From: a virus
Direction: 5' to 3' (one strand)
Length of the DNA stretch: 64,000 nt
IMG/VR virus record: IMGVR_UViG_3300035670_000079
Location: 1-64,000 of that record
The notes beneath the pieces were generated by a model, which was not told the origin of the DNA, ran no database searches, and was given only the letters and a program-made list of their open reading frames with translations. Positions 18,326 to 34,436 of this stretch are shown one piece after another (positions within the stretch are counted from its first letter, which is position 1; each line of letters opens with the position of its first letter). Made by a program: the position numbers and the translations under genes.

Positions 18326-18392
18326 AAAATCCGATGGGGGTTACCCCGTGTGGGTTCGAGTCCCACTATCCCTAATTCTTAGAGGTAGCGTT

Positions 18393-18794: not shown

Positions 18795-19342
18795 TTAGTG
18801 TCGCACGTACCGTAGCTGGTTCAGGTGTTCGTCAAGTTACGTATGAACTTACGGATACGGTTACACTTCACAGCCGGTACTGGAGTGGCGGAACTAAGCA
18901 CCACTATTACCGCAGAAGTATCGCGGTGTCTCCTAGTGGTACTATTAAATTCCCGGAAACTCAGAAAACTGAAGACTATAAACTGAGTCCCGGTGAGGTT
19001 GTAGTGCTGTGTGCTGATGTTGGCACTAAGCAGTATGTGACAGTGTACTGTCACCCGGATACGCCTATTGCCAAGATGCCGGCGAATCAAGTTACGCTGC
19101 AAGGCTTAACTACGCACCTGAAACTCGTGTTGTGGTCAACCCGCAACAATAAGTCAAGTTATGCTGGTATCAGCAACTACAGATACTACTGCGTTCGCAG
19201 TTATATTACGCAAAGTGAGTGGGATGCTGCCCGGTCTGCCTTGATAAAAGTAGGCCTGCTCGACGGGCGTGGTGCTCTTACTACTGCTGGTAAGAATCTT
19301 GCAGATGAGCTTGGGCATACAGTTACTAGCATCGTAGGTTAG
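18770..19342 (+). CDS. hypothetical protein
   Basis: Track ORF. Confidence 0.55.
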   Translation: MYCNDPAVVSVARTVAGSGVRQVTYELTDTVTLHSRYWSGGTKHHYYRRSIAVSPSGTIKFPETQKTEDYKLSPGEVVVLCADVGTKQYVTVYCHPDTPIAKMPANQVTLQGLTTHLKLVLWSTRNNKSSYAGISNYRYYCVRSYITQSEWDAARSALIKVGLLDGRGALTTAGKNLADELGHTVTSIVG

Positions 19343-19344
19343 TC

Positions 19345-19992: not shown

Positions 19993-20293
19993 GGATACCC
20001 TTCTAAGTGAGGTCAGTGCGTTAATAGCCGTAGAACCTAACTTAACGCTGGCCGATATTGCCAAACTCTTGCAGTATAACCAAAGATACTTGGGTAGGCA
20101 GCTTAGCGGTACAGCCCTTAGGAAGAAGATACGAAACAAGGCTAGGGGTATGCGTTACTCTAAGCTTAATGCTGCTAAGCACGAAGAGATACGGGCACTA
20201 CGCCTTAAGGGTAAAAAACTGCGAGAACTCGCAGAGCAGTTTGGCGTAAGCCATCAAATGATTTCACAAATATGTTCAAAGGGGTTAAAATGA
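19979..20293 (+). CDS. HTH DNA-binding protein (paralog family member 2)
   Basis: Module KHEEIRALRLKGKKLRELAEQFGVSHQMISQICSKG. Confidence 0.6.
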   Translation: MSTARDTLLSEVSALIAVEPNLTLADIAKLLQYNQRYLGRQLSGTALRKKIRNKARGMRYSKLNAAKHEEIRALRLKGKKLRELAEQFGVSHQMISQICSKGLK

Positions 20294-21231
20294 CAGTTCA
20301 CAGGGATGAGTTGCAGGTAAAAATACAAGAGCTACTGGATAAGGAGCCTACCCTAACTATTAGGGAAATTGCTGACGAGCTTAGACACTGTCAGCAAGTT
20401 GTCAGCGATACTATGAAAGCTATGGGAGTTAAGTCTCTACGCGAGCGTAGGACTGCGGATGCTGTTATGCGTATGCGGATGCTCTTGCAGGATGCGCCTG
20501 AGATTACGTTGGCTGAGCTTGCTGCTAATCTAGGATACTGCGAGGAGTATGTAAGGGGGATGGCTAAAGCTGCGGGCATTACGCTTAAGCGTAAGCCGGT
20601 TGCTGTTAAACGGTATTCTAAACTTAGTTCGGATAAGTACGAAGAGATACGTGTACTTCGCCGCACAGGTAAGACGTTACGCCAGCTTGCTAAGCAGTTC
20701 GGTATAACTTATCAAATGGTATCCCTTATCTGTAAGGGGATTAAGGTTGAACGTGAGCCTAAGCTGATTATACCTAAGGCTGAGCTTGAGCAGGCTATTA
20801 AGTCTGATCCTGAGGCTGATCTTAAGAGCCTCGCAGCTAAATTTAACAGTAGTGTATCCCGTGTACGCTATGCAATACAGCGATACGGGCTTAGTTACAA
20901 GTCTAAGCTGTACCGTCCGTGGAGTAAGCTTAACAAGATGTATGATGCGATATTGGCATCGGGAGTTAAGCTCACTAATAATGAGCTGTATGCTCGCTTA
21001 GGGGTTAGCCGCGTTCACGGCGGGATTATTACGCTGCGTAGGCGACGTAAGGGTTTGCCTACGATGAACCCTAAGACAAAGACTTACTCTCCCGGCCCTA
21101 GTCCGGAGGTGGTAGCACAGGTAGAGGCTACGCTTAATAGCGGGCTTGGTGTAACAGCTACTGCTAGAGAATTAGGTCTTAAGCATACTCAAGTAGCTTG
21201 GATACGGCGGAAGATGAAGCGAGTACGCTGA
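20290..21231 (+). CDS. multi-HTH DNA-binding protein (paralog family member 3)
   Basis: ATG 20290 has an ATGA overlap with the upstream gene. Modules KYEEIRVLRRTGKTLRQLAKQFGITYQMVSLICKG and RRRRKGLPTMNP...SPEVVAQV. Confidence 0.6.
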   Translation: MTVHRDELQVKIQELLDKEPTLTIREIADELRHCQQVVSDTMKAMGVKSLRERRTADAVMRMRMLLQDAPEITLAELAANLGYCEEYVRGMAKAAGITLKRKPVAVKRYSKLSSDKYEEIRVLRRTGKTLRQLAKQFGITYQMVSLICKGIKVEREPKLIIPKAELEQAIKSDPEADLKSLAAKFNSSVSRVRYAIQRYGLSYKSKLYRPWSKLNKMYDAILASGVKLTNNELYARLGVSRVHGGIITLRRRRKGLPTMNPKTKTYSPGPSPEVVAQVEATLNSGLGVTATARELGLKHTQVAWIRRKMKRVR

Positions 21232-21277
21232 TGTAGGCATACTCGCCATACAGAGTTCCCTGAATTAGGATTTGAAG

Positions 21278-21796
21278 ATGAAATTTTTGCACAACGGTGG
21301 TTACGATACACGTGCCAGCAGTTACTTGGATGCATTGCGGTACTGGTATATGGCGGCTCGTAATGATGAGAGGCTGCCAGTACCAGATGGCTCTGCTCTT
21401 ATTGAAGCAGTTACTAATCAACTTGTACTTACATGTGGTTTTGAAGATACTCCGCACCTCCGGGAACATACTCCCGAAGGTGCTGCTATGATATTGTTTA
21501 AGTTTCTTAAAGTAAAGGGGTTGGTGACGGACGTTACTGATGAGCCTTGCAAGACTTGCGAGCTTATGGTGGCGTTCTCCGGCTCGCTCAGGGTTAGCTC
21601 TGATGATGTTACGTTTGTTTGTGTGGATGGTAACTCGCGGTTCGTAGAGATTACCGGAGGTGACTGGGTTAATTTGCCATATGGGGATAAGCCTAGATAT
21701 GTGCTGAAGTCATTGGCAGACGCCATGAATGCCACTAATGATACTACTATTGATGAACTTGACATTACTATTGAGGATGAGACATGTCTGAGTTAG
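21278..21796 (+). CDS. hypothetical protein
   Basis: Track ORF 21272..21796. The first ATG is at 21278. Confidence 0.55.
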   Translation: MKFLHNGGYDTRASSYLDALRYWYMAARNDERLPVPDGSALIEAVTNQLVLTCGFEDTPHLREHTPEGAAMILFKFLKVKGLVTDVTDEPCKTCELMVAFSGSLRVSSDDVTFVCVDGNSRFVEITGGDWVNLPYGDKPRYVLKSLADAMNATNDTTIDELDITIEDETCLS

Positions 21797-22143
21797 GCCC
21801 ACTTCAAACTGAGTTTATACGGGCACTTAGGGAGGACAATATTCCCCAAGGTAGGTTTGCGTTCTTTCGGATAATTCCCGGTAAAGAGGTGTGCGAGCAT
21901 TGTGCCTTAGGGGTAGCCATTATGACCTGTGCCAGTAATGGTTTAGATTTAAGGTGGACTAAGGTAAACTCTAAGTGGACACTTAATGATAATCAAGGGC
22001 TTAAAGTAGCAGAGATGCTGAAGTTTACTGAAGCCGGCTCACATCAGATAATTGTACTCAACGATATTAATATGTTGACGTTCCCACAAATAGCTGATGA
22101 GATTGAGAAAAATCCTCTTTTCTATTTTACGGAGCCTGCATAA
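21784..22143 (+). CDS. hypothetical protein (tandem paralog A)
   Basis: Its N-terminus LGPLQTEFIRALREDNIPQG is nearly identical to that of the next gene. Confidence 0.6.
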   Translation: MSELGPLQTEFIRALREDNIPQGRFAFFRIIPGKEVCEHCALGVAIMTCASNGLDLRWTKVNSKWTLNDNQGLKVAEMLKFTEAGSHQIIVLNDINMLTFPQIADEIEKNPLFYFTEPA

Positions 22144-22496
22144 TGGAACTAGGGCCACTTCAAACTGAATTTATTCGAGCACTCCGTGAGGATAACATCC
22201 CTCAGGGTTTCGGTCAAGAGTTTACTATTGTACCCGGTGAGCCTGTGTGTAGGCACTGCGCATTCGGTGTAGCAGTTATGACGTGTGTTAGCAACGGTCT
22301 TAAATTGAAATGGGCTAAATCTGATAATGGGTGGTACTACAGGGACTCACAATCACTTATTAGGGGCATGCTGGCAATGACGTTTTGCGGTAACGCTAAC
22401 ATTATTAGAATGAATGACTCTAAAAAGTTGACTTTTCCTGAGATAGCTGCCTGTATTGAAGCTACTCCTGCCTATTATTTTGAGAGGTCAGTGTGA
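22143..22496 (+). CDS. hypothetical protein (tandem paralog B)
   Basis: Shares LGPLQTEFIRALREDNIPQG, C.HCA.GVA.MTC.SNGL and LTFP.IA with paralog A. Confidence 0.6.
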   Translation: MELGPLQTEFIRALREDNIPQGFGQEFTIVPGEPVCRHCAFGVAVMTCVSNGLKLKWAKSDNGWYYRDSQSLIRGMLAMTFCGNANIIRMNDSKKLTFPEIAACIEATPAYYFERSV

Positions 22497-22729
22497 GATA
22501 CCGTGTGATTGAACCGTGTACTTTTGAAGTGTTCGATAGTTGTGCTGGCGGCGATGCCAGTGACCCAATACTTAGGGAGTGCTCCGTAGGTGACATATTA
22601 GAAGTAATGCATACAGACCACCCTCATACGTTCGAGGGTGTTGAGATTAGTGATCTCATTAACGCTGAATTTGCAGATGGTACTGTTGCCTTCTGCTTAA
22701 GTACGACATGGTTTGAGGAGATTGAATAG
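22493..22729 (+). CDS. hypothetical protein
   Basis: Track ORF with a GTG start that overlaps the upstream stop. Confidence 0.5.
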   Translation: MRYRVIEPCTFEVFDSCAGGDASDPILRECSVGDILEVMHTDHPHTFEGVEISDLINAEFADGTVAFCLSTTWFEEIE

Positions 22730-23100
22730 TGAGAGTATTTAGCTTATCGCGGCAACCGGAATCCCTGCCACCTAACGGCAGATGTTACTCCTTTGGGTTA
22801 GCCAAGACCCTAATTTCTGTTAAGCGGTCCTTCACAAAGTTGGAGTTACAAAAGGCTCGCAGAGACTATATTCTCTGTAATGGTAAGATTACCGCTTCCG
22901 CAGATGCGACGTGGTTAATGTCACTTCCGCTAAATTTGTGCGTTAAGTTTGCACACCTGTGGCGTGATGTTAAGGTTATTGGTAATAAGGTTACCGTGAG
23001 TAAGGCACCCCGCGATAATGATATTCAACGGTTTAAGAGAGTTGGGTACATACGATATAATCCGCACTTGAAGGTACGCGGGCAACGCCGTTACGGGTGA
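22729..23100 (+). CDS. hypothetical protein
   Basis: Track ORF with a GTG start. Confidence 0.45.
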   Translation: MRVFSLSRQPESLPPNGRCYSFGLAKTLISVKRSFTKLELQKARRDYILCNGKITASADATWLMSLPLNLCVKFAHLWRDVKVIGNKVTVSKAPRDNDIQRFKRVGYIRYNPHLKVRGQRRYG

Positions 23101-23204
23101 TACTCAATTCATGTACTTTCTAATAATGAAAAAGTTAGATATTTTGACGAATTTAGTCACAAATGGTTGGAATTGTTGTAAAAAGGCCTACAGGATGACA
23201 AGAC

Positions 23205-23774
23205 ATGTTTACTGTTGTTGATACTGCCGGGTTCCGACATGACTGGCTTGATGCTAAGCCAGTCATATTCCTTGCCAATACACGTGATCCGAGTGAAGCC
23301 TATGATATGTATAGGCGTGAAGGCTATAAAAGCCTTCACGGATCGTCAGTTACAGTGGCTCTGTTGCAGGATATGAGTGTGTATATCACTGTGTCTGCTG
23401 CACCGCTCATTGATGTAGTTATGCAGAACGCTATGTTACGTGAGGCGTTTACTCAAGTTTACGATGAGTATGACTATGACTCACTTGAGGATGTTGCTAA
23501 TGATCTTGCAGAGGCTTTCTGCACCAATACGTTAGAGGAGCCGCACTTACGGGTTCTTCTAGATGTTGTGAATACTTATAGGAAGTGGATTTTGGATGCA
23601 TACGACATCCCATTGCTCATTGGTTTTAATGGTGAGGGGTATATTTATAGGTTAATCAGTACGCCCAAGGTTATTAGCAGGCTCAGTCTTACGCTGGATG
23701 TGGCACAGATTCGTGTGAATAAGGCTGCGTTGTTGCAAGCCTTGCAAGCAACCTCCTCAAGTAATATTCCGTAG
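23205..23774 (+). CDS. hypothetical protein
   Basis: Track ORF. Confidence 0.55.
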   Translation: MFTVVDTAGFRHDWLDAKPVIFLANTRDPSEAYDMYRREGYKSLHGSSVTVALLQDMSVYITVSAAPLIDVVMQNAMLREAFTQVYDEYDYDSLEDVANDLAEAFCTNTLEEPHLRVLLDVVNTYRKWILDAYDIPLLIGFNGEGYIYRLISTPKVISRLSLTLDVAQIRVNKAALLQALQATSSSNIP

Positions 23775-24365
23775 GTGACACAAATGCAATTTAACTACGA
23801 CAACGACACTGGAATGGGTAAACTCATTAATAGAGGTGCTATCATACCTATTACGGATATCGACGGTGAGGTTATGGGGGAGATTGCTGATAAGTACTTG
23901 CAGCGTGTGTTCTTGCAACTTGCTGCTTATGATGTTACTCTTGGGCAGTTAGCTGAGAGTATTAAGGATTCGCAGGTAACTAAGGCCAAGTTATTGGGAA
24001 TGGCCGCACTGGTTAAGCAGTTGCCGGGCACTGCTGACGATATTCGTGAGGATATTGACAATAAGTACCCAGTGTATGCCAGCATGGTGGCATCACTGGT
24101 GGCGATAGTGGCCACTGCGTATAATCGTAAGTATCCGGAAACGCCTTATAATATCTCTGTGATTAGGTATCAGCTCTCTGATGGTGAGCAGTCCGGTTGC
24201 TTGGCCATGTGCAATACTGATAAGATGCGTGAGATAATGGAGGAGGACGGCGGTACCGTTACAGAAGTTCGTGGTGATACGCCTAATACTGCTGAGGTTA
24301 CTTTTAAGTCACCTACGGGTAAGACCAGTCTTAGCGATATTCAAGGTGATCCTAGCCTGAATTGA
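23775..24365 (+). CDS. hypothetical protein
   Basis: Track ORF starting at GTG 23775. An alternative ATG is at 23784. Confidence 0.55.
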   Translation: MTQMQFNYDNDTGMGKLINRGAIIPITDIDGEVMGEIADKYLQRVFLQLAAYDVTLGQLAESIKDSQVTKAKLLGMAALVKQLPGTADDIREDIDNKYPVYASMVASLVAIVATAYNRKYPETPYNISVIRYQLSDGEQSGCLAMCNTDKMREIMEEDGGTVTEVRGDTPNTAEVTFKSPTGKTSLSDIQGDPSLN

Positions 24366-24419
24366 GCTTACTAGTCTATATGCTTGTGTGATCACACTTA
24401 ATTCTCTTGAAAGGTTGAC

Positions 24420-25661
24420 ATGCCGTTTTTGACTTGTGCTTCTGATTTTGTCTACATGGCCGGTAATACGTCTAATGCCATTGTAGACACATTACCAGCC
24501 GGCGTATATACGCTGGATTACAACAAGTTTAGGGGGTGGTTGTTTACGCCGACTACTATGTACACTGTTCCGGAGACTCTTTACGGTAATACTGTTAGCC
24601 GGGCAGATAGGGTTATGCAGTCGTTTAATGCCCGCAGCACCGGATTAGGTGTACTGCTTAGTGGTAGGAAAGGTGCCGGTAAATCCCTATTGGCCAAGCT
24701 TATTGCTCTTAGGTGCATTGAGGCAGGTATTCCTGTAGTTACTTTGCAGCAGGCTATTGCTGGACAGGACTTTACTGGTCTGATTACGGCTATTAATCAA
24801 CCGTTGTGCGTATTTGTAGATGAGTTTGAGAAACTGTATATTCCCAATGATAATGAGGAGACTAATCCTCAAGCTCACCTACTTACATTGCTTGATGGGG
24901 TTACTCATAATGATAAGAGGCTCTGGCTATTTACTGCTAATAGTTCTGGTAGTGTGCATGAGGCTTTGCTCGGTAGGCCCAGTCGTATTTTTTACAACTT
25001 CAAGTATAAGGGGCTTGATCCGGAGGTGATTACAGAATACTGTAAGGACAACCTCAAGGATAAGTCTAGGGCACAGGACGTACTGGCAATAGGCCGAAAG
25101 CTTGAATTGTTTGAGTTCGACGGCCTGAAGTCAGTAGTAGAGGAGATTAATAGGTATCCTGATATTACTACTGAAGAAATTTTCGCGAGCCTTAATTTGG
25201 GAGATATCAAATATACGCTGGGTGATTGGCAGACTTACCAGATGGATATCGAGATAACCCCTAAAGCTACTCGTGGTAAGTCTCTTCATGAGATTAAGCC
25301 TTCGGTTCCGGCACACCTTAGTAGGAACTATATGCATAGTGTTGGCATGACTGATAGTTTCCGAATGTCGGCTACACTTGAAGCAGGGGAGCATACCTTG
25401 CTGTTTGATAATGCATATAGTTTGATAATTCGTACTATCGAAGGTATGGGTAGGGATGAGGACGATACTACCGTTATTACGGGTGTGTGTCATTGTGTTA
25501 ATGGTAAGTATCTTATTCTTACACCTACGGAAAAGTGTATTCAGAAGTGGCGTGACGATATTGCCCGGAATCTTATGGTCTTAGGTGATACCAAGCATAC
25601 CACAAAGGTGCTGGGTACGTATACAATTCGATTTACACCTGTCATTGATGTGGAGAGGTAA
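24420..25661 (+). CDS. AAA+ ATPase
   Basis: Walker A GRKGAGKSLLAK, Walker B CVFVDEFEK, sensor-1-like LFTANS, and GRPSRIF. Confidence 0.8.
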   Translation: MPFLTCASDFVYMAGNTSNAIVDTLPAGVYTLDYNKFRGWLFTPTTMYTVPETLYGNTVSRADRVMQSFNARSTGLGVLLSGRKGAGKSLLAKLIALRCIEAGIPVVTLQQAIAGQDFTGLITAINQPLCVFVDEFEKLYIPNDNEETNPQAHLLTLLDGVTHNDKRLWLFTANSSGSVHEALLGRPSRIFYNFKYKGLDPEVITEYCKDNLKDKSRAQDVLAIGRKLELFEFDGLKSVVEEINRYPDITTEEIFASLNLGDIKYTLGDWQTYQMDIEITPKATRGKSLHEIKPSVPAHLSRNYMHSVGMTDSFRMSATLEAGEHTLLFDNAYSLIIRTIEGMGRDEDDTTVITGVCHCVNGKYLILTPTEKCIQKWRDDIARNLMVLGDTKHTTKVLGTYTIRFTPVIDVER

Positions 25662-25791
25662 CGAGGATACGCCCATTACGGCAGACATTAAGTTAATAGA
25701 TTACATAAATGAGCCGGCAGACTCAGTGCTGGATTATATATTGAAGCATCATCTCAGCTACGCTATAGCTAAGGGGTTTCTCGACAACTGA
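25648..25791 (+). CDS. possible small protein
   Basis: Internal ATG of track ORF 25585..25791 that overlaps the ATPase stop. It ends just before a strong terminator. Confidence 0.3.
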   Translation: MWRGNEDTPITADIKLIDYINEPADSVLDYILKHHLSYAIAKGFLDN

Positions 25792-25812
25792 GTTTACGCG
25801 CAAAGAAACTTA

Positions 25813-25847
25813 CTCGCAAGCACTTGCAAGTGCTTGCGAGTTTTTTT
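25813..25847 (+). terminator. rho-independent terminator built around the CTTGCAAG core
   Basis: Perfect 11-bp stem ctcgcaagcac/gtgcttgcgag with loop ttgcaa, followed by T7. Confidence 0.9.
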
Positions 25848-25886
25848 ATGCCCATAGCTAGAGTCACTTAGTGTTACACTTACAGA

Positions 25887-26106
25887 GAATTTTAGCACAC
25901 CGAAAATTTTAGCACACCAAAAAATTTTAAGGCCCGGCCGAGCGTAAGCGAGGTGACACAAAGAATAACACATAAGAGAGAGAGAGAGAGAGTATAGAGA
26001 TAGAAGTAAGGCATACAGGTAGGCGCACGCCTATACCAAAAATTTTAAGCGAAGGCCTATACCAAAAATTTTAGCGAAGGCCCGTACCAAAAATTTTAGA
26101 GGCCGG
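25887..26106 (+). repeat. six dispersed copies of (ACC)AAAAATTTTAG
   Basis: Copies lie near 25887, 25902, 25919, 26035, 26061 and 26085. The third and sixth lead directly into box/polypurine units. Confidence 0.8.
25921..26012 (+). repeat. box + polypurine unit 1 (forward)
   Basis: Box ggcccggccgagcgtaagcgaggtgaca is followed by a largely purine stretch that includes (GA)n. Confidence 0.85.
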
Positions 26107-26200
26107 CCGAGCGGAGCGAGGTGACAGTTAAGAGTAATATAAAGAAGAGAAGGAAAGTATAGGAAGAGAGGAGATAGTAGAGGGGGAGTAATAGGTAGTG
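26091..26200 (+). repeat. box + polypurine unit 2 (forward)
   Basis: Box aaaattttagaggccggccgagcggagcgaggtgaca is followed by a ~75-nt A/G-rich tract. Confidence 0.85.
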
Positions 26201-26511
26201 TTCTCGCCCTTTCTGTTGCAAGCCTTGCATAACCCATAACTTCCATAACTTCCCTAGAGTAGACTTTAGTTAGTAGACTTTAGTTCCCTGTTCCCTAGAG
26301 TAGACTGTAATTTTAGTGCTAATTTTAGTAAAAATTGTAGTTTTATAGCTATTTTTATGCGTATTTTGGTCATTTACGAGTAGTTTTAGTACTATTTCTG
26401 GTAGTTTTAGTGAAAAATTTTAGTCTTGGTGCTAACTCACGCACAGCGGGGAATTTTTGGTCGGAATTTTCGGTAAAATTTCTGCTAAAATTCTTGGTAC
26501 GGAATTTTTGG

Positions 26512-26746
26512 TTGCAAGTGCTTGCAATTATGACCTAAAAGACGGTCTGAACTGTAAAAGTGTACACACTTTTAGAAGTAAAAGTTGCAAGCGCTTGCAA
26601 GTATAACCAAAATGATGGTTTGAACTGTAAAAGTGTACACACTTTTAAAAGTAAAAGTTGCAAGCGCTTGCAAGTACAACCAAAATGATGGTTTGAACTG
26701 TAAAAGTGTACACACTTTTTAGTTTCATAATTGCAAGTACTTGCAA
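26512..26746 (+). repeat. 73-bp tandem repeat x3 plus a fourth palindrome
   Basis: TTGCAAG..CTTGCAA palindromes start at 26512, 26585, 26658 and 26731. Each unit also contains aaaagtgtacacactttt, an 8-bp inverted repeat. Confidence 0.9.
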
Positions 26747-26875
26747 GAATAGAGGTGAGCGGAATCAGAATGAAAAATTTTCGCTTATTGTTATAGTTAG
26801 TGGGGCGAGGCCGGCAGAGCCGGCTTAGTGGGTTACGTAGCGGTATAGTTGCGGCTCGTAGTGCGGTTGGGCGTG

Positions 26876-26944
26876 TTAGTGTCTCTTATCTCTGTTCTAA
26901 TCTCATGCCAATTATTAGCACCTCGCTTACGCTCGGCCCGGCGG
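26876..26944 (-). repeat. box + polypurine unit 3 (reverse)
   Basis: cacctcgcttacgctcggcccggc is the reverse complement of the unit-1 box. On + it is preceded by a pyrimidine-rich tract. Confidence 0.8.
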
Positions 26945-26954
26945 TTAAATTTTT

Positions 26955-27040
26955 CGGATAGTCCGCTGCCGAGGCGTTAGCCGAGGTGACACAAAGTAGT
27001 GAGGAGATAGGTAACAAGGTAGTGGAGAGAGATAGAGGCG
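26955..27040 (+). repeat. box + polypurine unit 4 (forward, divergent from unit 3)
   Basis: Box ccgaggcgttagccgaggtgacaca is followed by aagtagtgaggagataggtaacaaggtagtggagagagatagagg. Confidence 0.8.
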
Positions 27041-27162
27041 TGCCACGCTGGTTAATTTTTTATGCGCCAGGTAAAAGCTTGCAAGGCTTGCAAGTGCCCT
27101 CAATAATTTTAGCGGTAGGGATATTTCCGAGGGCTTTATTTTAGTGGGGAATTTATGTACTC

Positions 27163-27240
27163 AAAATTTTAGAGGCCCGGCCGAGGCGTTAGCCGAGGTG
27201 ACACAGATAAGTAATAAGGAGAGGAGTAGAGATAAGAATG
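27163..27240 (+). repeat. box + polypurine unit 5 (forward)
   Basis: Box aaaattttagaggcccggccgaggcgttagccgaggtgacaca is followed by gataagtaataaggagaggagtagagataagaa. Confidence 0.85.
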
Positions 27241-27326
27241 AAATCGAATCAAAAAATTCCCGTTTTCTGTAATGATACTGGAAAATTTAGAAATAGTGGT
27301 TGGGGCGGCGCGTTAGCCGCCCTCCC

Positions 27327-27399
27327 GCCATTTTGGCGTGCTCATTTTGACTGCTCAAAAAATAGGCAGCCATTTTGGCAGGAAATCGGCCAATTTGGC
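27327..27399. repeat. three GCCAWTTTGGC near-palindromes
   Basis: gccattttggc at 27327 and 27369, and gccaatttggc at 27389. Confidence 0.75.
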
Positions 27400-27464
27400 A
27401 GCAAAATCGCGTGCCAATTCTCAAAAATGAGAAAAAAATTTTATTATTATCGAAAATGATAAAA

Positions 27465-27510
27465 AATTTTCCCGAAAGTGAGAAACTTTTTCCCGAAAGT
27501 GAGAAAATTA
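27465..27510 (+). repeat. direct repeat ttttcccgaaagtgagaaa x2
   Basis: Two adjacent copies read directly from the sequence. Confidence 0.8.
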
Positions 27511-27584
27511 TCAGAATTTCGCGGATTGGTATGCCATAATGGCGTGCCAAACTCGCGGCGGTCGCCGGGAATTCTCATTTGTGG

Positions 27585-27672
27585 GAATCTTCTGTTTTTC
27601 CCTTCTCTTTTGTGGGAATTGGCATGCCATTTTATGTAATCTGGATAATTATTATCACCTCGCTCCGCTCGG
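27585..27672 (-). repeat. box + polypurine unit 6 (reverse)
   Basis: tcacctcgctccgctcgg is the reverse complement of the unit-2 box. On + it is preceded by cttctgtttttcccttctctttt. Confidence 0.8.
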
Positions 27673-27780
27673 TAGTGTAGTCAAACTGATACTGCCCGGT
27701 TTCTGACGGACAGTGCCCGGTTTCTGTGCAGTGCGAAGTCAGGGTATTTTCGGCGATCCTCTAAAATAGTTGGTCCGGCC

Positions 27781-27934
27781 TGCCAATTTGACACCCGCGC
27801 GAAAGCGGAGTAAACCCGCTTGTGGACAGCGGTTGACGGCCGGCTCCTAGTGGTCGTCTGCGTCGGCTCCCCTGCGTACACTGAACACATGCCAATTTGG
27901 CACATGCGTCGAAGCGGAGTAAACCCGCTTATGG
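27781..27934 (+). repeat. two ~45-nt copies of tgccaatttgRca...gaagcggagtaaacccgctt
   Basis: Copies lie at 27781-27826 and 27890-27934. Each ends in the hairpin aagcgg-agtaaac-ccgctt. Confidence 0.8.
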
Positions 27935-27958
27935 GCGGGGGCGGGCGGGTGATTTGGT

Positions 27959-28055
27959 TAGCCAAATTTGCATAACCAAATTGGCATAACCAAATTTGCC
28001 GAACCAAATTTGCCGAACCAAATTGGCATAACCAAATTGGCATAACCAAACCTGG
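27959..28055 (+). repeat. 14-bp tandem array x7 (AACCAAATTGGCAT / AACCAAATTTGCCG)
   Basis: Unit boundaries are 27974, 27988, 28002, 28016, 28030 and 28044, plus a degenerate first unit. Confidence 0.9.
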
Positions 28056-28180
28056 AGCGTGCCGCACGTTCACCAGTGTCCGGAGGTGACCTTCTGACGA
28101 TAATTCATAACGTGGCATAATGGCATATCGTGGCAAGCGTATAGTGACACGGGCGGAACTATACACGGGCATCGTCACTC

Positions 28181-28216
28181 TACTGTGTCCGCAGTAGGTA
28201 CTGTGTCCGCAGTAGG
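28181..28216 (+). repeat. 18-bp tandem repeat x2 (tactgtgtccgcagtagg), each an inverted repeat
   Basis: Two exact adjacent copies. Each unit contains TACTG..CAGTA. Confidence 0.9.
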
Positions 28217-28487
28217 TCACGCCCAGCGTGGACCGTAGGTGCCTGCCTTACTAAGCATGCGGCACCTGATGCGATGCTATGGGTCCAGAATCGCCTAGGA
28301 TGCGTTCTGACGCATCGAATCGGCGGACGATATATCCATCGTCCTGATAGGCTATCGTCGATCCTACGCGAAATAAGGTTTTACTTATACTAGGTCACGC
28401 AAGCGGGGACTGGTTGCAAGTGCTTGCAAGTGCAGGACTTGTGACTACGGGTTTCACCGTTGGTACGCGGTTTGCGTTTCTTTATAT

Positions 28488-28532
28488 CACGCCCAGACCG
28501 GCCACGCCCAGACCGGCCACGCCCAGACCGGC
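28488..28532 (+). repeat. 15-bp tandem repeat x3 (cacgcccagaccggc)
   Basis: Three exact adjacent copies. Confidence 0.9.
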
Positions 28533-28691
28533 CACTTGCCGTAGGTGACATGCGAGCATGAATTGAGATTCAGTCTCAGCTAAAAAATTAGTCCAGAAAA
28601 GTAATCGTCTGGGATAGACACTGCCGATACTGGTCGTCATAGTCCGCTTCGTTGGTTGTGTGCTGATGACGCTAACTGAAAGGAATGATTG

Positions 28692-28790
28692 ATGAGTAAG
28701 ACAGAATTCGTGATTGCTCTGTCAGTCGCTGTGATGTGGGCCGCGTGTGTGGCTTACAGTTTCTGTCTGGTTTTCTGTAAGGGGTTTTGA
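28692..28790 (+). CDS. possible 32-aa hydrophobic peptide
   Basis: MSKTEFVIALSVAVMWAACVAYSFCLVFCKGF, preceded by gaaagga. It ends 2 nt before the next ATG. Confidence 0.3.
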   Translation: MSKTEFVIALSVAVMWAACVAYSFCLVFCKGF

Positions 28791-28792
28791 AA

Positions 28793-29167
28793 ATGGCCGA
28801 TGCACGTAATCTTGCTCAGAATCTGGAGTCTCGTTTCAAAGGCAGTCGTCTCGCTGCCGTTGCTGCTGAGTGTCTGGAGTTGTTTCGGCGGGCTGATCGG
28901 CTCCAGAGAGCCGCTCAGTTGGCGTATGATGAGTCAGTGGGTGCTTATGCTGATGCTGATGAGTCCGGCGAACAACCCTACTTGCGGGCTGAGGAGATGC
29001 TTGGACATAGGGCGTGGCAACTCCGGGGGCAGGCGATTGCCTGCCTCAATAGGGAATTGGCCACGCTACCGATTGAGGCTCGGTATAACGTGTTGTCCAT
29101 TGCCTGCGGGCTTGGCGGTGTGCTGGACGATGCCTTGCCGAAGGCTGAAACGGTGCCGGCTCTGTGA
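28793..29167 (+). CDS. hypothetical protein (GC-rich island gene 1)
   Basis: Track ORF 28787..29167. The ATG is at 28793. The sequence is helical and Ala/Leu/Arg-rich, and its codon composition is visibly G/C-skewed. Confidence 0.55.
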   Translation: MADARNLAQNLESRFKGSRLAAVAAECLELFRRADRLQRAAQLAYDESVGAYADADESGEQPYLRAEEMLGHRAWQLRGQAIACLNRELATLPIEARYNVLSIACGLGGVLDDALPKAETVPAL

Positions 29168-29169
29168 GC

Positions 29170-29207
29170 CTGCTGGAAGCAAGTTTGACTCTCATCCGCG
29201 TTTGTTT
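29170..29207 (+). repeat. 38-nt island leader repeat, copy 1
   Basis: ctgctggaagcaagtttgactctcatccgcgtttgttt. It is followed by CCGGAGGTG at 29249. Confidence 0.85.
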
Positions 29208-29286
29208 CCTGCCCGGCGTGGTGCCGGGCGGGGTTTCATGGTCGGCTTCCGGAGGTGATCCGGGAGCCAGATAAGGGGTGTGTGCT

Positions 29287-29964
29287 ATGTCTACGATTAG
29301 GTGCTGGAATGCGTCTGCGTTTGCTCTGCTGACGATGCCTCTGCCTGTCGGGGCAGATGGACTCGTGCGGAGTCGTGACGTGCGGTCCTCTCTGCGGGGT
29401 GCGGGGTTGATCGAGTGCACCCGGCTCCGGGAGTCGGTCGAAACCGGCGGGCTGGAGCGTGTGTCTCTGGCAGCGACGCTGCGGGAGGGTGATACTCTCA
29501 CTCTCCCGGCGGGCTGGACGGTTGCGGGGGCAGTCCCCCGGAGCAAGCTGGTTCATGTGGTACGTGGGGAACTGCGGTCCCTCACGGCATCAATTGATGC
29601 CGCGGTGCACCACTACGCCGCCCTCGCCGGCGATGTCTCCGATGCCGAACGCAAGGCTTCGCGGGATGATGCCTATCGACTGATGCGTGAAATGGGCGAG
29701 AGCATCGAGTCCCTCGTTCCGGCGGGGCGGTTCGGCGTGCTGATGGTGCCGCCGGCGTGGCTGATGGCCCTGCTGCCGTCAGCCTTCCGGGTCAAGCCGT
29801 CAGCGGGCGGACGCTACCGTGGTCCGGGCATCACCGCTCCGGCCGTGTCCCTGCTGTCGGCGGACGATCTGATCGTCCCGTCTGCGAGTGACTCACAGCC
29901 GTCTGCCGGTGAGTCGCTGGAAGTCGTCTTCGCTGAAGCTGCGGCGGACTTGCTCAACGCCTAG
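29287..29964 (+). CDS. hypothetical protein (GC-rich island gene 2)
   Basis: Track ORF 29278..29964. The ATG is at 29287. Confidence 0.55.
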   Translation: MSTIRCWNASAFALLTMPLPVGADGLVRSRDVRSSLRGAGLIECTRLRESVETGGLERVSLAATLREGDTLTLPAGWTVAGAVPRSKLVHVVRGELRSLTASIDAAVHHYAALAGDVSDAERKASRDDAYRLMREMGESIESLVPAGRFGVLMVPPAWLMALLPSAFRVKPSAGGRYRGPGITAPAVSLLSADDLIVPSASDSQPSAGESLEVVFAEAAADLLNA

Positions 29965-30010
29965 CTGTTGCAAGTGCTTGCCAGTGCGGGGCGGGCCACT
30001 TCGGTCCGCC

Positions 30011-30048
30011 CTGCCGGAAGCAAGTTTGACTCTGTTCCGCGTTTGTTT
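30011..30048 (+). repeat. 38-nt island leader repeat, copy 2
   Basis: ctgccggaagcaagtttgactctgttccgcgtttgttt. It is followed by CCGGAGGTG at 30053 and ATG 30068. Confidence 0.85.
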
Positions 30049-30067
30049 TTGTCCGGAGGTGCTGAGA

Positions 30068-30292
30068 ATGATCGAAGTCAAGCGTGAACCGTGGGGCGTC
30101 CGCCAGTATGTCCGGCGTCTGCAATGGGAGGGCGGGGCAACCATCCCCGCCTGCGTCTGGCGGGGATGGCGGGAAGCCAAGCGGGACCGTGTGCGGTCTG
30201 CCGTACGGTCTGCGGGCGGCCGCTTCCGCATTGAAGCGGTCCGCTCCGAGGAAGGGCGGCGGATTGTTTCCGCCGTTATCGTTGAGTTTTGA
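30068..30292 (+). CDS. hypothetical basic protein (GC-rich island gene 3)
   Basis: ATG 30068 lies 8 nt after GGAGGTG. It is in frame with track ORF 29888..30292. Confidence 0.5.
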   Translation: MIEVKREPWGVRQYVRRLQWEGGATIPACVWRGWREAKRDRVRSAVRSAGGRFRIEAVRSEEGRRIVSAVIVEF

Positions 30293-30426
30293 ATAATTCT
30301 GGGATAACCGATATGCCGTGAGATAATTTTATCACGCGGCATATCGGTCCGCCATTCCGGCAGGCTGTCAATCTGACAGTTTGCCGGGGGCATGCCAAGA
30401 TGGCAGGTCCGGCGGGTGCGCAAACA

Positions 30427-30605
30427 GTCAATATGTATTTTTTTGCGTATTTTTTATTTTGCGTATTTTTTTGCGTATTTTTTATTTTTCAAACTTTTAG
30501 TCAATATGTATTTTTTTGCGTATTTTTTATTTTGCGTATTTTTTTGCGTATTTTTTATTTTTCAAAACTGGCAACCAATACGTATTTTTTTTTATTTTTC
30601 AAAAT
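30427..30605 (+). repeat. AT-rich 73-bp tandem repeat (~2.4 copies) built of GCGTATTTTTT sub-repeats
   Basis: Units start at 30427 and 30500, with a partial third from ~30573. Confidence 0.9.
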
Positions 30606-30671
30606 TCTAACTCTCTCAGCGTCCGCGAACAGGCATGCTCGAAACAATACATATTGCTCGAAAGAGCTAAC

Positions 30672-30716
30672 GTGCTTGGCGTGCTCCCGGTGCTTGACGT
30701 GTTCGACGTGCTTCGG
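30672..30716 (+). repeat. 9-bp tandem repeat x5 (GTGCTTNNC)
   Basis: The five units are gtgcttggc, gtgctcccg, gtgcttgac, gtgttcgac and gtgcttcgg. Confidence 0.8.
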
Positions 30717-30788
30717 CAGTTGCAAGACTTGCAAGCGTGCTACCTTAGTTAGGTGCGCGAAAACGGCAGATACGTGTAAAGTACGGAT

Positions 30789-30817
30789 TTGACTTACGAT
30801 TCACAGTGTGCTATAAT
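30789..30817 (+). promoter_or_regulatory. near-consensus sigma70 promoter TTGACT-N17-TATAAT
   Basis: Sequence is ttgact tacgattcacagtgtgc tataat. The -10 lies about 90 nt upstream of ATG 30909. Confidence 0.75.
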
Positions 30818-30826
30818 ACACTAGGG

Positions 30827-30874
30827 ATGTATCCTACGTTGAGACGTATCCTACGTTACGATGTATCCTGTATT
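30827..30874 (+). promoter_or_regulatory. three 17-bp-phased repeats (GTATCCTACGTT-like) in the 5' leader; candidate operator
   Basis: atgtatcctacgtt at 30827, acgtatcctacgtt at 30844 and atgtatcctgtatt at 30861, immediately downstream of the -10. Confidence 0.6.
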
Positions 30875-30908
30875 AAGACATACCTCAAACTAAAAAGGTG
30901 CTAGAAAG

Positions 30909-33161
30909 ATGCCCAGTTTTCCAAGTAAACGCCCGTATGGTGACAGTAGTGAGTCTTACAGTAGCAGTGAGTCTTACAACAGTGAGTCTTACAGCGATAA
31001 TGAGCTTGACAACAGTGATAGTGACAACAGTAGTCCTGTAGATAACGCTGAAGATAATAGTTCCGCTAGTAAAAGTTTATCTGTAGCGGGTGTTCTGACA
31101 CGTGCCGAAGAGGTGCATGCCAGCATTGCCACTAATTGGGTAGTACTTATATCTGATAGCCCTGCACCCACTACTCCTGAACGTATGCTCAGAGAAGCTG
31201 CAAAGCTTGGCGAGACTACTAAGCTCGGTGAGACTACTGAATTCAGTGAGGCTGCTCTGAATGGGCGTAGTTTAACACCGGAAGAAACCGCTAAAAGAGA
31301 TGCATTGCTGGATTTTGGGTTAATGGAGAGATTCCACAATGTAGCTTCCCAAGTCGCGGAATACTTCAAATTAGATAGGGCTTGTGCCTTGCGGCTGCGT
31401 AAGGCAACTGCCGCAGATTTTCAAGAGATAGCTAAAGGTAAGTGTAGTCCTAATAACCTTGCGGATCTCACGCTTGTGCGGTTAAGCCCATGTATTAGTG
31501 AGGGTTATGACCTTGGTGAGCTTTGCCAATGTGATTACAGCCGACACTCCCATACAGTAAAGCTCCTGTGGGATGTGCGGCGGGACATGGAGAAACTCCG
31601 CGATAACCCACACGTCAGACAAGAGGATAAGCCTAAATTGATAGAAGCAAGCCGTAAACTCTACGAAGCTGAGCATGTACTTGAGTTACTGCAATTCAGC
31701 CTTCTTAAATTTGCAAGTGCTTGCAAGCTCGGTGTTGTCACTATGCCGGAGTTGCATTTACCGAAAGACGCACGTGGTAACTTCGTTGCTCCTATGCTTT
31801 ACAGGGAGGAGGAATACGATACCAGCGGTATCCTGATATTGGAGGGGGAATTAATGCCGATGAATGGCGAAGTTCCAAGTAATCCGCGCACATGGCTACC
31901 TTCCAGCGCTAATAGTCGATCTGAATTCACCGAAAATGACTACGAATATCTTAAACATACTGCTAGTGCCGGGCCTTTTCAGCCGCAACCAAATAACTTA
32001 GTTGCTGGCATTCTTGTCAATATCCTGATGAATAACAGCAAAGCTTGCCGTAACTTGACTGACCTTATTCGGGAATTTCCAGTTAGACCTATGGCTGCCG
32101 TACATAATGAGGCTGCTGTACCTAATAACACTGCTGGTATACTCCGTCCGGTAACTCACGTAGTGTTGCCACACTTTGACAGAGCCAGTGTTATCCCTGC
32201 TACTAATTACGCTGTGGTGGAACTTTCGGATAGTGTTGATAACTGTGGGGAAACTATTGAAAACTATGCTTACAATCACCCCGATAATGACGGTCCTGTA
32301 AAACCCCTCACTACTAAGCAGGCTATTCGTAAATTTGGTTATCGCAAGACCGGTGAAATGGGTATTATGTCAATAAGTGATGCCAATCTTGCCACTAGCA
32401 ATGTCACAACCGGAATTACGGAAGTGTTCGGTAATGATGGTATTGAAGTGGATAGGTTTACACTCAATACACGGGAATATCGTCCTGTTGGTATCTCTTC
32501 GTGTAAATTTGAAGATATCTCATTTTTCATAGAAGTTCCGGGCATGCTTACCAGAGCTGCCCTTGCAGATGCCCTGCGTGAGTGCGCTCAAACATATTCG
32601 CATAGGTACACCACTAGTCACGAAGTTTTCATCAATGCTGACAAAAATCTTCGTGATATCCTCAGGCCTAATGAGTACCGCAAAGCGTTGGTAACAGCCG
32701 ATAACTACTATGCCTTTACGTTACGGCAGCCGGAGCAGCGATTAGTGTTTTTTTCTTATGGTTATGTACAGCCGCCGACATTGTCACAGCTTTACTCTAC
32801 TATTATCACTGGGTTAGAGCGTACATGTTACCGTGGGCGGACAATACTTCCTCGCCAATTTGTAGATGGCCGAGAAGTTATGAAATTATCAATTGAAGAC
32901 TTCAGTGCGGACGGGTCGCTTGCACAGCATAAGGTTATAGGTGAGCTTGAGATATCATTGGCTGCGGAACCTCCTATTGAAGATATCCCAGTTCTCGATA
33001 AAGCAAGCTTCGATAAGTATGGTAATCAAACCCGTACCCCCACAATCGTGGGCAAGTACAGCGTTAAAATTGCAAGTCTTGCAACTTTGAAGTTCACACC
33101 TTGTTATGATTCCGCTTATGCTAGTGGTGGCTCTGACGACACTTTTTCTGAAACACTGTGA
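30909..33161 (+). CDS. large hypothetical protein (750 aa) with Ser/Glu/Asp-rich N-terminus
   Basis: Track ORF. It is the first gene after the strong promoter. I recognised no motif. Confidence 0.7.
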   Translation: MPSFPSKRPYGDSSESYSSSESYNSESYSDNELDNSDSDNSSPVDNAEDNSSASKSLSVAGVLTRAEEVHASIATNWVVLISDSPAPTTPERMLREAAKLGETTKLGETTEFSEAALNGRSLTPEETAKRDALLDFGLMERFHNVASQVAEYFKLDRACALRLRKATAADFQEIAKGKCSPNNLADLTLVRLSPCISEGYDLGELCQCDYSRHSHTVKLLWDVRRDMEKLRDNPHVRQEDKPKLIEASRKLYEAEHVLELLQFSLLKFASACKLGVVTMPELHLPKDARGNFVAPMLYREEEYDTSGILILEGELMPMNGEVPSNPRTWLPSSANSRSEFTENDYEYLKHTASAGPFQPQPNNLVAGILVNILMNNSKACRNLTDLIREFPVRPMAAVHNEAAVPNNTAGILRPVTHVVLPHFDRASVIPATNYAVVELSDSVDNCGETIENYAYNHPDNDGPVKPLTTKQAIRKFGYRKTGEMGIMSISDANLATSNVTTGITEVFGNDGIEVDRFTLNTREYRPVGISSCKFEDISFFIEVPGMLTRAALADALRECAQTYSHRYTTSHEVFINADKNLRDILRPNEYRKALVTADNYYAFTLRQPEQRLVFFSYGYVQPPTLSQLYSTIITGLERTCYRGRTILPRQFVDGREVMKLSIEDFSADGSLAQHKVIGELEISLAAEPPIEDIPVLDKASFDKYGNQTRTPTIVGKYSVKIASLATLKFTPCYDSAYASGGSDDTFSETL

Positions 33162-33176
33162 AATTAAGGTAAAAAA

Positions 33177-34430
33177 ATGCCAGCAAGCTATGACACACCT
33201 AAAGGTATCCGCGAGTTAGCGGGAATTATGAGTTCACCGGGAGTTACTACCCATGTTGCCGGTAAAGTTATTAGCAATCTAGCTAAGGCGGGAGACCTTG
33301 CCACTAAGAGTGGAGACCTCGCTGCCGTGTCCGGTAAACCGGTAATCAATAGTTTTACTGAGCTTAACCGTGAGTTGCGAGAGCTTACGGCTGCTTCCGA
33401 TAACGCCTCAGGTAAGTTACAGGAACTTTTGAATACCGACAATCCTGAGATTACCTGCAATCCTGAGATTACCTGTGACGATTTTAGTGAAGCGGTTGAG
33501 GGCGCCGCTAAGCCGATATTTGACGTAACTCCGTTTGATGAACTAGTATTTCAGGTTCGCAGGGAGCATGCAGGTAAGCGACCTCCGGGAATTACGCTTG
33601 CCGTTACTGAGCGTGATCCTGATATAGGCGGATCATTAGATTCATTCTTTGTCGTAGATTCTACCAATAATTTCAGTTTTAAGTTCTCGGAAATGCAGTC
33701 CGGAATAACGCTACACTTGGCGGATTACGCCGATGAGGCATTGATTTCTAAGATGTTACCCAATACTCACCCAATTTCACAGATTCCTCTCAATGGCCGG
33801 GCTTTTTACGGTGAGTGCCAGAATCACTGGATTAGTGCCGTATTTCGGATGCCTAATATACCTAATAGGGTACCGGGTATTCTACTATCTCCTAGTCGGC
33901 TTGATCATCTAGAAACTAGAGTTCGGGACATGCGGTACGCTATGGACCGCAACTACGATTACTCTGCCCCAATGGACGGGTGGTTATATGACTTTAGGAC
34001 ACTTTCTGACCATATCATAGGTGTAATGGAGCGTGTTGTAAACAAAGTTCACCCTGACTATGGACATATAATGGGTGTAATATATATTGCAAATAGGTTG
34101 ATACAGTCTTATAGGTCTGTGTGTAAACTCTGCCGTGACTATGGGGTTATAGCAATTAATGCCGGAGATATAGACGAGCTGGTGGTGCGGATTAAGTCAC
34201 TGTTACCCAAGTATGAATCTATTCGTGCTAATATACATAGCACTGCTCGCGGAGAGTTACTGCAAAAGCTAAATAAGCGCATAAAAAATGCCGGTTATAA
34301 CGCACGTTTTATAGATACCGATGAGATGCAGATAACGTCCAGAGGTGATCGCCAACTTGACTTAGGTAGAATCACATTTAAGCACGAATATGATAATATA
34401 TTTACCATTAAATACACCTCTCGCATCTAG
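33177..34430 (+). CDS. hypothetical protein (417 aa)
   Basis: Track ORF. Confidence 0.65.
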   Translation: MPASYDTPKGIRELAGIMSSPGVTTHVAGKVISNLAKAGDLATKSGDLAAVSGKPVINSFTELNRELRELTAASDNASGKLQELLNTDNPEITCNPEITCDDFSEAVEGAAKPIFDVTPFDELVFQVRREHAGKRPPGITLAVTERDPDIGGSLDSFFVVDSTNNFSFKFSEMQSGITLHLADYADEALISKMLPNTHPISQIPLNGRAFYGECQNHWISAVFRMPNIPNRVPGILLSPSRLDHLETRVRDMRYAMDRNYDYSAPMDGWLYDFRTLSDHIIGVMERVVNKVHPDYGHIMGVIYIANRLIQSYRSVCKLCRDYGVIAINAGDIDELVVRIKSLLPKYESIRANIHSTARGELLQKLNKRIKNAGYNARFIDTDEMQITSRGDRQLDLGRITFKHEYDNIFTIKYTSRI

Positions 34431-34436
34431 GAGCAC

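Follow-up and report, generated by a model that had tools for sequence, protein, structure and literature searches.

Positions 1 to 64,000 of the IMG/VR virus record IMGVR_UViG_3300035670_000079 (the window) are part of the ~101 kb genome of a long-tailed phage, and a non-coding hub of this window holds six copies of a GC-rich box whose centers all belong to a known family of DNA mini-hairpins. Four copies (F1 to F4) are on the + strand and are followed by purine-rich tracts in which C is scarce, and two (R1 and R2) are on the − strand. The reading favored here, with a probability of about 0.35, takes the six units for modules in which a hairpin marks initiation, the whole being a replication origin or an early-control hub and the tract being the part that unwinds and supports an RNA:DNA hybrid. 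The hairpin core is newly recognized, having been overlooked in an earlier note made from this DNA, and by its sequence it would tie the boxes to known initiation signals. Hairpin-marked starts are known from few systems, namely the N4 virion RNA polymerase (RNAP) promoters, the G4-type primase origins and the plasmid ssi signals, and transcript-primed origins are known from T4, T7 and ColE1; a mini-hairpin combined with a C-free, hybrid-prone tract would join both types. If true, the favored reading would provide a compact model of initiation specified by DNA structure rather than by duplex sequence and may lead to new enzymes among ORFans. If the units are ordinary phage-specific promoters, their value is limited to the annotation of an orphan lineage.

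The box family and its hairpin core

The box family is real, far beyond chance and internally constrained. In an alignment of the six copies, CCGAG and CGAGGTG are invariant and the center is 5, 6 or 8 nt long; the arms are 100% conserved and the flanks have diverged. The word CGAGGTG occurs exactly six times in the 64 kb, always within 25949–27662, and the gapped patterns GCCGAG-N(4-9)-CGAGG and GCG-N(1-2)-AGC(C)GAGG have five matches in the window (0.05 expected) and six matches (0.15 expected), respectively. Scored with a covariance model of the box, the six copies reach 38.6–47.6 bits. These counts and scores bear out the six GC-rich boxes in two orientations that the earlier note had reported, including the back-to-back pair formed by R1 (−) beside F3 (+). 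A search of the rest of the genome, which that note had proposed, returned no further copy in 82 kb of phage sequence, where the next best match with filters off reaches 13.5 bits and where neither the covariance model nor a word search finds the box at any other gene boundary. All six copies are thus inside 1.75 kb of a hub rich in iterons and palindromes.

On the + strand, F1 (25931–25959; 47.6 bits) reads GGCCCGGCC-GAG-CGTAAG-CGAGG-TGACAC, F2 (26101–26127; 39.1 bits) reads GGCCGGCC-GAG-CGGAG-CGAGG-TGACAG, F3 (26968–26992; 39.0 bits) reads GCC-GAG-GCGTTAGC-CGAGG-TGACAC and F4 (27174–27204; 42.4 bits) reads GGCCCGGCC-GAG-GCGTTAGC-CGAGG-TGACAC. The − strand copies are R1 (26910–26942; 42.4 bits), which reads GCCGGGCC-GAG-CGTAAG-CGAGG-TGCTAATAATT, and R2 (27647–27672; 38.6 bits), which reads CC-GAG-CGGAG-CGAGG-TGATAATAATT. 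The block GGCC(C)GGCC is present at F1, F2 and F4 only, and F3 lacks both this block and the AAATTTTAG flank.

All six centers fit the GCGNAGC/GCGNNAGC family of DNA mini-hairpins, GC-G-N(1-2)-A-GC, in which two G-C pairs close a sheared G.A pair. The core is CCGAG-C-GTAA-G-CGAGG in F1 and R1 (mini-hairpin word GCGTAAGC), CCGAG-C-GGA-G-CGAGG in F2 and R2 (GCGGAGC) and CCGAG-GC-GTTA-GC-CGAGG in F3 and F4 (GCGTTAGC; GGCGTTAGCC in the F3 box). In the stem, a tandem G.A/A.G lies between the two outer C-G pairs and the inner ones; the base pair adjoining the loop is C-G in four copies but G-C in F3 and F4, which gain one more C-G pair. With the register set correctly, 86.7% of cells hold standard pairs (27–47% in slid controls), and the sole non-standard cells are the loop-closing G.A. 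That every variant of the six-copy family stays inside the mini-hairpin family is the evidence for the hairpin. Sheared G.A pairs leave pyrimidine mismatches on the complementary strand and a loop without G.A closure, so the hairpin would be favorable on one strand only, and the favorable strand is the one that bears the purine-rich tract side.

The mini-hairpin motif melts at ~76 °C with only three pairs (Hirao et al.; PMC13037366), a stability that thermodynamic models leave unexplained, and GBAA, GNA and GTTA loops are all acceptable in the family (PMC13037366). The motif is recurrent at replication and transcription origins: GCGTTAGC sits at the primase-dependent origins of phages St-1 and alpha3, and GCGGAGC sits in the N4 virion-RNAP promoter (PMC13037366). 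The N4 promoter words were also found in the N4 genome in a check of our own.

Several box-like sequences lie outside the six copies. At L136:1179–1200, ~830 nt upstream of window position 1, GGCGGAGCGAGGTAATAC is a partial seventh box at a gene junction; it has the mini-hairpin GCGGAGC and GAGGT, lacks the left arm and places GAGG 8 nt before the GTG start of the next open reading frame (ORF). Its covariance score is sub-threshold, and it may be a coincidence with a ribosome-binding site. Possible degenerate remnants of units lie at 28537–28555 and, on the − strand, at 27750–27778; of these candidate remnants, CCGTAGGTGACATGCGAGC has the 3' core of the box only and CTATTTTAGAGGATCGCCGA the 5' flank only. 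A box-related hairpin on the + strand, GGGCGGC-GCGTTA-GCCGCCC (27301–27320), contains the same GCGTTAGC word between arms that are fully Watson-Crick, with AAAATTTAG before it (27282) and a terminator-like site after it (27326–27338).

Downstream tracts and upstream repeats

C-free runs of 77, 40 and 40 nt, longer than any others in the window, lie directly 3' of F2, F4 and F1. All four forward tracts are on the + strand: that of F1 (25960–26019) is 82% purine with 4 C and includes (GA)9 and a C-free run at 25972–26011; that of F2 (26128–26202) is 80% purine with 0 C and belongs to the 77-nt run, the longest of the window; that of F3 (26993–27038) is 83% purine with 1 C in 46 nt; and that of F4 (27205–27244) is 82% purine with 0 C and leads into a Shine-Dalgarno (SD) sequence and an ATG at 27238, the start of a dubious 73-aa ORF called by JGI. 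T is the main interruption, and C occurs 0–4 times in 40–76 nt. The earlier description of the tracts as almost pure A/G was therefore overstated, with the scarcity of C being the sharper property, and the claim that a polypurine tract follows all six boxes holds for F1–F4 but fails for R1 and R2. On its own strand (−), the sequence downstream of R1 (26876–26909) is 70% purine with 4 C and forms no significant tract, and that downstream of R2 (27585–27646) is 63% purine with 12 C and belongs to another repeat family (TTCCCACAAA-GAGAA). What R1 and R2 have in common is TAATAATT, immediately 3' of GGTG, which the window contains at no other place. The absence of a tract together with this shared word indicates two sub-classes of unit rather than six equal ones.

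The forward tracts also stand out in computed energies. In ease of duplex melting within the window, F1, F2 and F4 reach the 98th percentile or higher, and F3 the 87th. When the purine strand is taken as RNA, the hybrid-minus-duplex energy, computed with provisional parameter values, ranks F2 second of all 40-mers on both strands; F3, F1 and F4 fall within the top 0.16%, 0.6% and 2.7%, respectively, and R1 and R2 are unremarkable. With no C in one strand and no G in its complement, a tract cannot fold back on itself in either strand. The tract sequences are not conserved between units, save for (A)GAGATA(G) in five of the six, and selection appears to act on tract composition, not on sequence. 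Two other functions that had been proposed for the tracts are not shared by the family. Mirror repeats reach 17 nt in F1, at most 9 nt in F2–F4 and 5–7 nt in R1 and R2, so that F1 alone has one of at least ~15 nt; the F1 tract is also the one without SD words, and without the GGAG/AGGAG cores that had been ascribed to the tracts generally. Neither triplex (H-DNA) formation nor an SD-rich sponge RNA can thus be a common function. Terminator-like hairpins on the + strand lie 3' of the F3 and F4 tracts, that of F3 being GGCGTGCCACGCT + GGTTAATTTT (27037–27059), directly after the tract.

Upstream, the AAATTTTAG element beside the F1, F2 and F4 boxes is the last of three tandem copies, 17–31 nt apart. 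Three AAATTTTAG-containing repeats with a period of 17–18 nt abut F1 (25887–25930, +), three 25–26-nt repeats that each end in ACCAAAAATTTTAG abut F2 (26037–26099, +) and three ATTTTAG copies with a period of ~30 nt lie upstream of F4 (27104–27172, +). The AAAATTTTAG that had been reported before the boxes, each time the third of three tandem copies, is exact at F2 and F4, has one mismatch at F1 and is degenerate at R1.

Other repeats crowd the same region. Between 25887 and 27172, and most densely at 26300–26500, there are ~20 iteron-like copies of (A/T)ATTTTAG, mostly on the + strand with inverted copies at 26473–26502; the window total is 44 against 22 expected, half of it in the hub. The 16-bp palindrome TTGCAAGNNCTTGCAA occurs 18 times window-wide with at most two mismatches, against 0.3 expected (for example at 4003, 8630, 26512, 26585, 26658, 26731, 28414, 31711 and 51720), both within genes and directly 5' of ribosome-binding sites (13991, 16918, 44510 and 51737). 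Its sequence and distribution suggest a processing hairpin, or the binding site of a factor that acts on DNA or RNA genome-wide. Three 73-bp tandem repeats at 26511–26751 each contain a TTGCAAG..CTTGCAA palindrome and a second palindrome, AAAAGTGT-AC-ACACTTTT.

Proposed initiation, polarity and rival explanations

In the favored reading, unwinding or negative supercoiling would let the box snap into a hairpin that marks the start point, and an RNA, either a short transcript or a primer, would be laid across the tract, rightward from F1–F4 and leftward from R1–R2. A persistent hybrid, trimmed by the RNase HI that the phage encodes at 36041 (PF00075, E 2.5e-20), would then prime DNA synthesis, as at T4 oriF/oriG or ColE1. 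A DNA-binding protein of the phage would occupy the upstream AAATTTTAG arrays and open or activate the units, and the two orientations, including the divergent pair, suit bidirectional firing. The least certain steps are the enzyme that would read the box and the polarity of synthesis.

The precedent is T4 oriF/oriG, where a promoter, an unwinding element, an R-loop and RNase H are combined (PMC3016281). What T4 and ColE1 would share with the hub is the succession of a start signal, an easily unwound element, a persistent hybrid and a primer made by RNase H (PMC3016281), and by their computed low stability and hybrid preference the F1–F4 tracts, together with RNase HI, would be of this type, whereas R1 and R2 do not qualify. 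The systems differ in that T4 has a MotA-dependent promoter with a normal −10, an A+T-rich DNA unwinding element and a flap-nuclease-type RNase H, whereas the phage has a box that is rightly placed but without a recognizable promoter, an unwinding element that is C-free and purine/pyrimidine-asymmetric, and six units in two orientations. The earlier suggestion that the units are R-loop or primer elements for origin firing thus stands in part: the melting and hybrid energies and the RNase HI agree with it, but no promoter was found and R1 and R2 lack the tract.

Rightward synthesis from the F units is favored by the position of the tract as a downstream element, by the + strand terminators after F3 and F4 and by the SD and ATG in the F4 tract, and it is the weakest link of the reading. 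In N4, the mini-hairpin words are on the − strand upstream of + genes, that is, on the template strand, and transcription proceeds toward the 5' side of the hairpin. The accepted scheme of G4-type priming likewise has the hairpin on the template, with synthesis directed to its 5' side.

Searches for an enzyme that could read the box covered ~72 kb of the ~101 kb genome, and the negative results that follow apply to these ~72 kb. No match to PF00940 was found, and no giant virion RNAP. A PDB sequence search, a word-indexed protein search and an exhaustive search of 1.84 billion proteins revealed no reading enzyme. The 750-aa ORFan at 30909–33161 has an acidic, Ser-rich, low-complexity N-terminus and no polymerase motifs; apart from its own fragment it has no homologue among 1.84 billion representatives, and its single-sequence AlphaFold model is unusable (pLDDT 34). 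Three adjacent genes at 19345–21231 encode proteins with multiple helix-turn-helix (HTH) domains (HTH_7, HTH_28, HTH_24 and, in one, a borderline Sigma70_r4), which by their domain content are candidate binders of the repeat families of the hub. A promoter scan and inspection found no sigma70 −10/−35 at a fixed distance from the F units, and sigma70 promoters at these units were rejected because the hexamers are absent. The earlier statement that neither sigma70 hexamers nor ORFs explain the units is accordingly right for F1–F4 and less so for R2, which overlaps a weak sigma70-like match (GTGATA-18-TAAAAT). Its further proposal of a promoter for a non-sigma70 RNAP finds no support in the gene content, which includes many unassigned ORFans but no RNAP or complete sigma factor and neither of the polymerase motifs sought, the universal DxDGD and T7 motif B (all + frames). 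It is conceivable, though doubtful, that a hairpin-dependent initiation system has gone unseen, in which an enzyme among the unassignable proteins, or a host enzyme redirected by the multi-HTH proteins, would read a non-template G.A mini-hairpin and lay down a C-free purine RNA that would remain hybridized and prime bidirectional replication.

A number of points weigh against the favored reading. Neither a replication initiator nor promoter elements were identified, and the main ORFs contain no RNAP, complete sigma factor, primase, helicase or DNA polymerase (Pfam and PHROGs). The polarity rule of N4 and of the accepted G4-type scheme would send synthesis leftward from F1–F4 and rightward from R1/R2, against the polarity favored. 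R1 and R2 are without a C-free purine tract, and the hybrid energies carry the uncertainty of their parameter values. As for the hairpin, its structure was derived from the six sequences on which it was tested; covariation offers modest support, since the copies are six paralogues and a single event probably accounts for the C-G/G-C swap; and by itself the mini-hairpin word is common, with 78 occurrences in the window against ~65 expected. Standard nearest-neighbor DNA folding of the boxes gives z ~0, a null result attributed to thermodynamic models that miss mini-hairpin stability (PMC13037366). The hub shows no GC-skew switch and no DnaA-box cluster (21 near-matches against 15.8 expected in the window, one of them in the hub), and it has no relatives in the collections searched. 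A link between an origin and the adjacent AAA+ ATPase was dropped, as the ATPase family is not origin-linked in Aeromonas phage LAh_9.

The foremost alternative, unlikely but to be taken seriously, is that the units are plain phage-specific duplex promoters, used by host RNAP with a phage factor or by an unrecognized phage polymerase, for short C-free, unstructured and purine-rich non-coding or leader RNAs that would act in regulation or translation and have no role in replication. A conserved block that adjoins a compositionally constrained downstream stretch would suit promoters, the F units are co-directional with all genes and lie 5' of the early block like tandem early promoters, and terminator-like sites after F3 and F4, the SD and ATG in the F4 tract and the multi-HTH cluster at 19345–21231, with its one borderline match to sigma70 region 4, all fit as well. 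The box even contains nine nucleotides, AGGTGACAC, that are identical to positions −12 to −4 of SP6 promoters and are followed by an A/T-rich tetranucleotide and purine-rich sequence; compared with real SP6 promoters, however, the copies agree at 9–12 of 19 consensus positions and lack the AT-rich −17 to −13 block and the TATA-G start. The boxes differ in length by 4 nt, which is ill-suited to T7-type promoters, the F units have no −10/−35 at a fixed distance, no RNAP gene of any class is found in the ~72 kb, no copy precedes other gene clusters and two units face against all genes. An improbable alternative is that a DNA-binding protein of the phage recognizes CGAG...CGAG in the duplex boxes, which would then be operators, iterons, or partition or packaging sites, with no start of synthesis. 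The arms do form a direct repeat (GCCGAGG twice in F3 and F4), the hub is rich in other repeats that resemble protein sites, the three adjacent multi-HTH genes are a possible source of the binder, the terminase by its best matches is of the long-terminal-repeat type, and coverage differs across the hub. Half-site spacings of 9, 10 and 12 nt are awkward for a rigid dimer, though, the center varies only inside the hairpin family, and a C-free tract that is strand-specific and follows the orientation of the box would be left unexplained.

If anything slightly less probable still are single-strand signals with the polarity of N4 and G4, in which a primase or polymerase would take the hairpin strand as template, begin 3' of the hairpin and proceed in the direction of its 5' side, with the C-free tract only a non-folding landing pad behind the start. 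The mini-hairpin words recur unchanged in the N4 promoter and in the St-1 and alpha3 origins, N4 was confirmed to have its words on the template strand, GGCC(C)GGCC and AAATTTTAG, both conserved, are on the 5' side and would be in the region copied initially, R2 would face the early genes, and the opposed orientations recall ssiA and ssiB of RSF1010, which are opposed within an iteron-type origin. Like the N4 signals, the boxes would be strand-specific mini-hairpins with a purine loop closed by G.A, clustered in a non-coding leader, and GCGGAGC is the center of F2 and R2. N4 stems, however, have 5–7 Watson-Crick pairs and 3-nt loops, whereas the stems here have 2 + 2(3) pairs around a tandem G.A and loops of 3–4 nt, the 3-nt GGA loop occurring only in F2 and R2, and they are far shorter than G4 hairpin I as well. 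The N4 hairpins lie on the template strand upstream of genes, whereas F1–F4 are on the coding strand and only R1 and R2 fit; firing from four of the six units would oppose all genes, nor would the + strand terminators that follow the tracts be accounted for. N4 is moreover a podovirus, and this phage has a tape-measure protein (long tail) and yielded neither a giant virion RNAP nor a primase in the ~72 kb. The signals of G4, St-1, alpha3 and ssi resemble the boxes in their GCGTTAGC/GCGAAAGC mini-hairpin, which in those systems sits at the start of an RNA primer on single-stranded DNA, but they are multi-hairpin structures of single-stranded DNA replicons or plasmids, with defined start trinucleotides and no counterpart of the C-free tract, whereas here a single short hairpin lies in a double-stranded DNA phage with no CTG start site 3' of it.

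The least probable of the explanations weighed is that the units act as RNA elements in transcripts that start upstream, with a 5' stem-loop that sequesters an extended SD (GAGGUGA) and an unstructured purine tail, as a decoy for ribosomes or for an RNA-binding protein, a nut-like antitermination signal or an anti-defense RNA. GAGGTGA(T) is complementary to the 3' end of 16S rRNA, and the genes of the phage use such SDs. With RNA parameters the box hairpin, with a 2x2 G.A loop, is part of the minimum free energy structure in F1 and F3, and in the partial seventh copy at L136:1179 the GAGG is the SD of the next ORF. Racr provides a precedent (PMC10651486). Against this, only GUAA is a canonical stable RNA loop, GGA and GUUA fitting the DNA family better; the F1 tract has no SD words and no start codon lies at SD distance; and the RNA fold z-scores of the box are unremarkable. 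A known RNA family was rejected, as the box has no Rfam match. IMG/VR has no exact copy of the box 20/21-mers, and a search of 185,579 species genomes gave one solitary copy of the 20-mer and no CRISPR array. The Racr-type CRISPR-repeat mimic (PMC10651486) consequently receives no support from a search that used exact words only, which diverged repeats would escape.

Relatives, genome setting and other features

In IMG/VR, the gapped box pattern gives single matches per contig, as expected by chance. The sole genome match of the 20-mer (L146:5998–6140) lies in a deltaproteobacterial metagenome-assembled genome, CAVVNC010000041.1, in an intergenic tandem repeat 5' of a radical-SAM/SPASM gene, where GAGCGGAGC and GAGCGTAAGCGAGG occupy the same position of adjacent repeat copies, so that both loop variants occur together. 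This match was set aside, since ~1 chance 20-mer match is expected and the repeat around it is not the same element. Searches of 50,697 phages by megablast and blastn gave no match, the next relatives of the ATPase (at most 45% identical) have no comparable region, and the 750-aa protein, ThyX and RNase H gave no useful relatives as anchors. A 98.3%-identical strain from another sample (ERZ27299533) matches 58101–61169, in the tail region only. The T5 iss is an ordered set of eight DnaA boxes; the hub has one near-match, no enrichment and no sequence similarity to it, and a T5-iss-like region was rejected on the lack of DnaA-box enrichment.

The hub itself (25792–28692) is a 2.9-kb, ORF-poor, repeat-dense non-coding block with no convincing ORF and with 31 direct and 31 inverted repeat families, and all six units are within it. 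A strong terminator hairpin (25812–25841, +; 13-bp stem followed by T7), which also scores on the − strand, ends the upstream operon, and 3' of the hub lies a block of small genes followed by RNase HI and ThyX. The hub is 99.97–100% identical in every contig with flanking genes, from several independent metagenome samples, and is thus not an assembly artifact. Metagenome contigs tend to end within its tandem repeats: breaks fall exactly at an array of seven 14-bp repeats (27938–28064; CCAAATTKGCMKAA), at 27936/27975, and at three perfect 15-bp repeats (28488–28535; CACGCCCAGACCGGC), at 28506. SPAdes coverage of the ERZ4201046 contigs is 34.3 for 16744–27936, 25.6 for 27975–38677, 19.8 for 58270–64000+ and 20.5 at the window start; the highest value, on the hub-bearing contig, fits an origin-centered copy gradient or a terminal repeat, and is weak evidence. 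A GC-rich island (28001–30400; 58.6% against ~45% elsewhere) lies just 3' of the hub, with ORFs that have no Pfam or PHROG match, and contains several of the most RNA:DNA-hybrid-favorable 40-mers of the window.

The + strand carries all long ORFs of the window, among them the terminase (45201), portal (46953), a capsid-type protein (50233) and the tape-measure protein, the largest ORF, which runs from 60222 past the window end. The terminase is ~21% identical to those of Listeria and Bacillus phages, and the AAA+ ATPase reaches at most 45% identity to any other protein; the phage is an orphan lineage. Tandem 18-bp repeats (GAATCCGGCGAGTCTAGT) at 1–127 and L136:1951–2044 are coding; they encode an acidic Ser/Glu-rich repeat in the N-terminal part of a VWA-domain protein, and the ENA assembly has a run of N at this place. 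A tRNA-Ile with anticodon TAT at 16074–16164 is 90–91 nt long against a 71-position model, which points to an insertion or a long extra arm.

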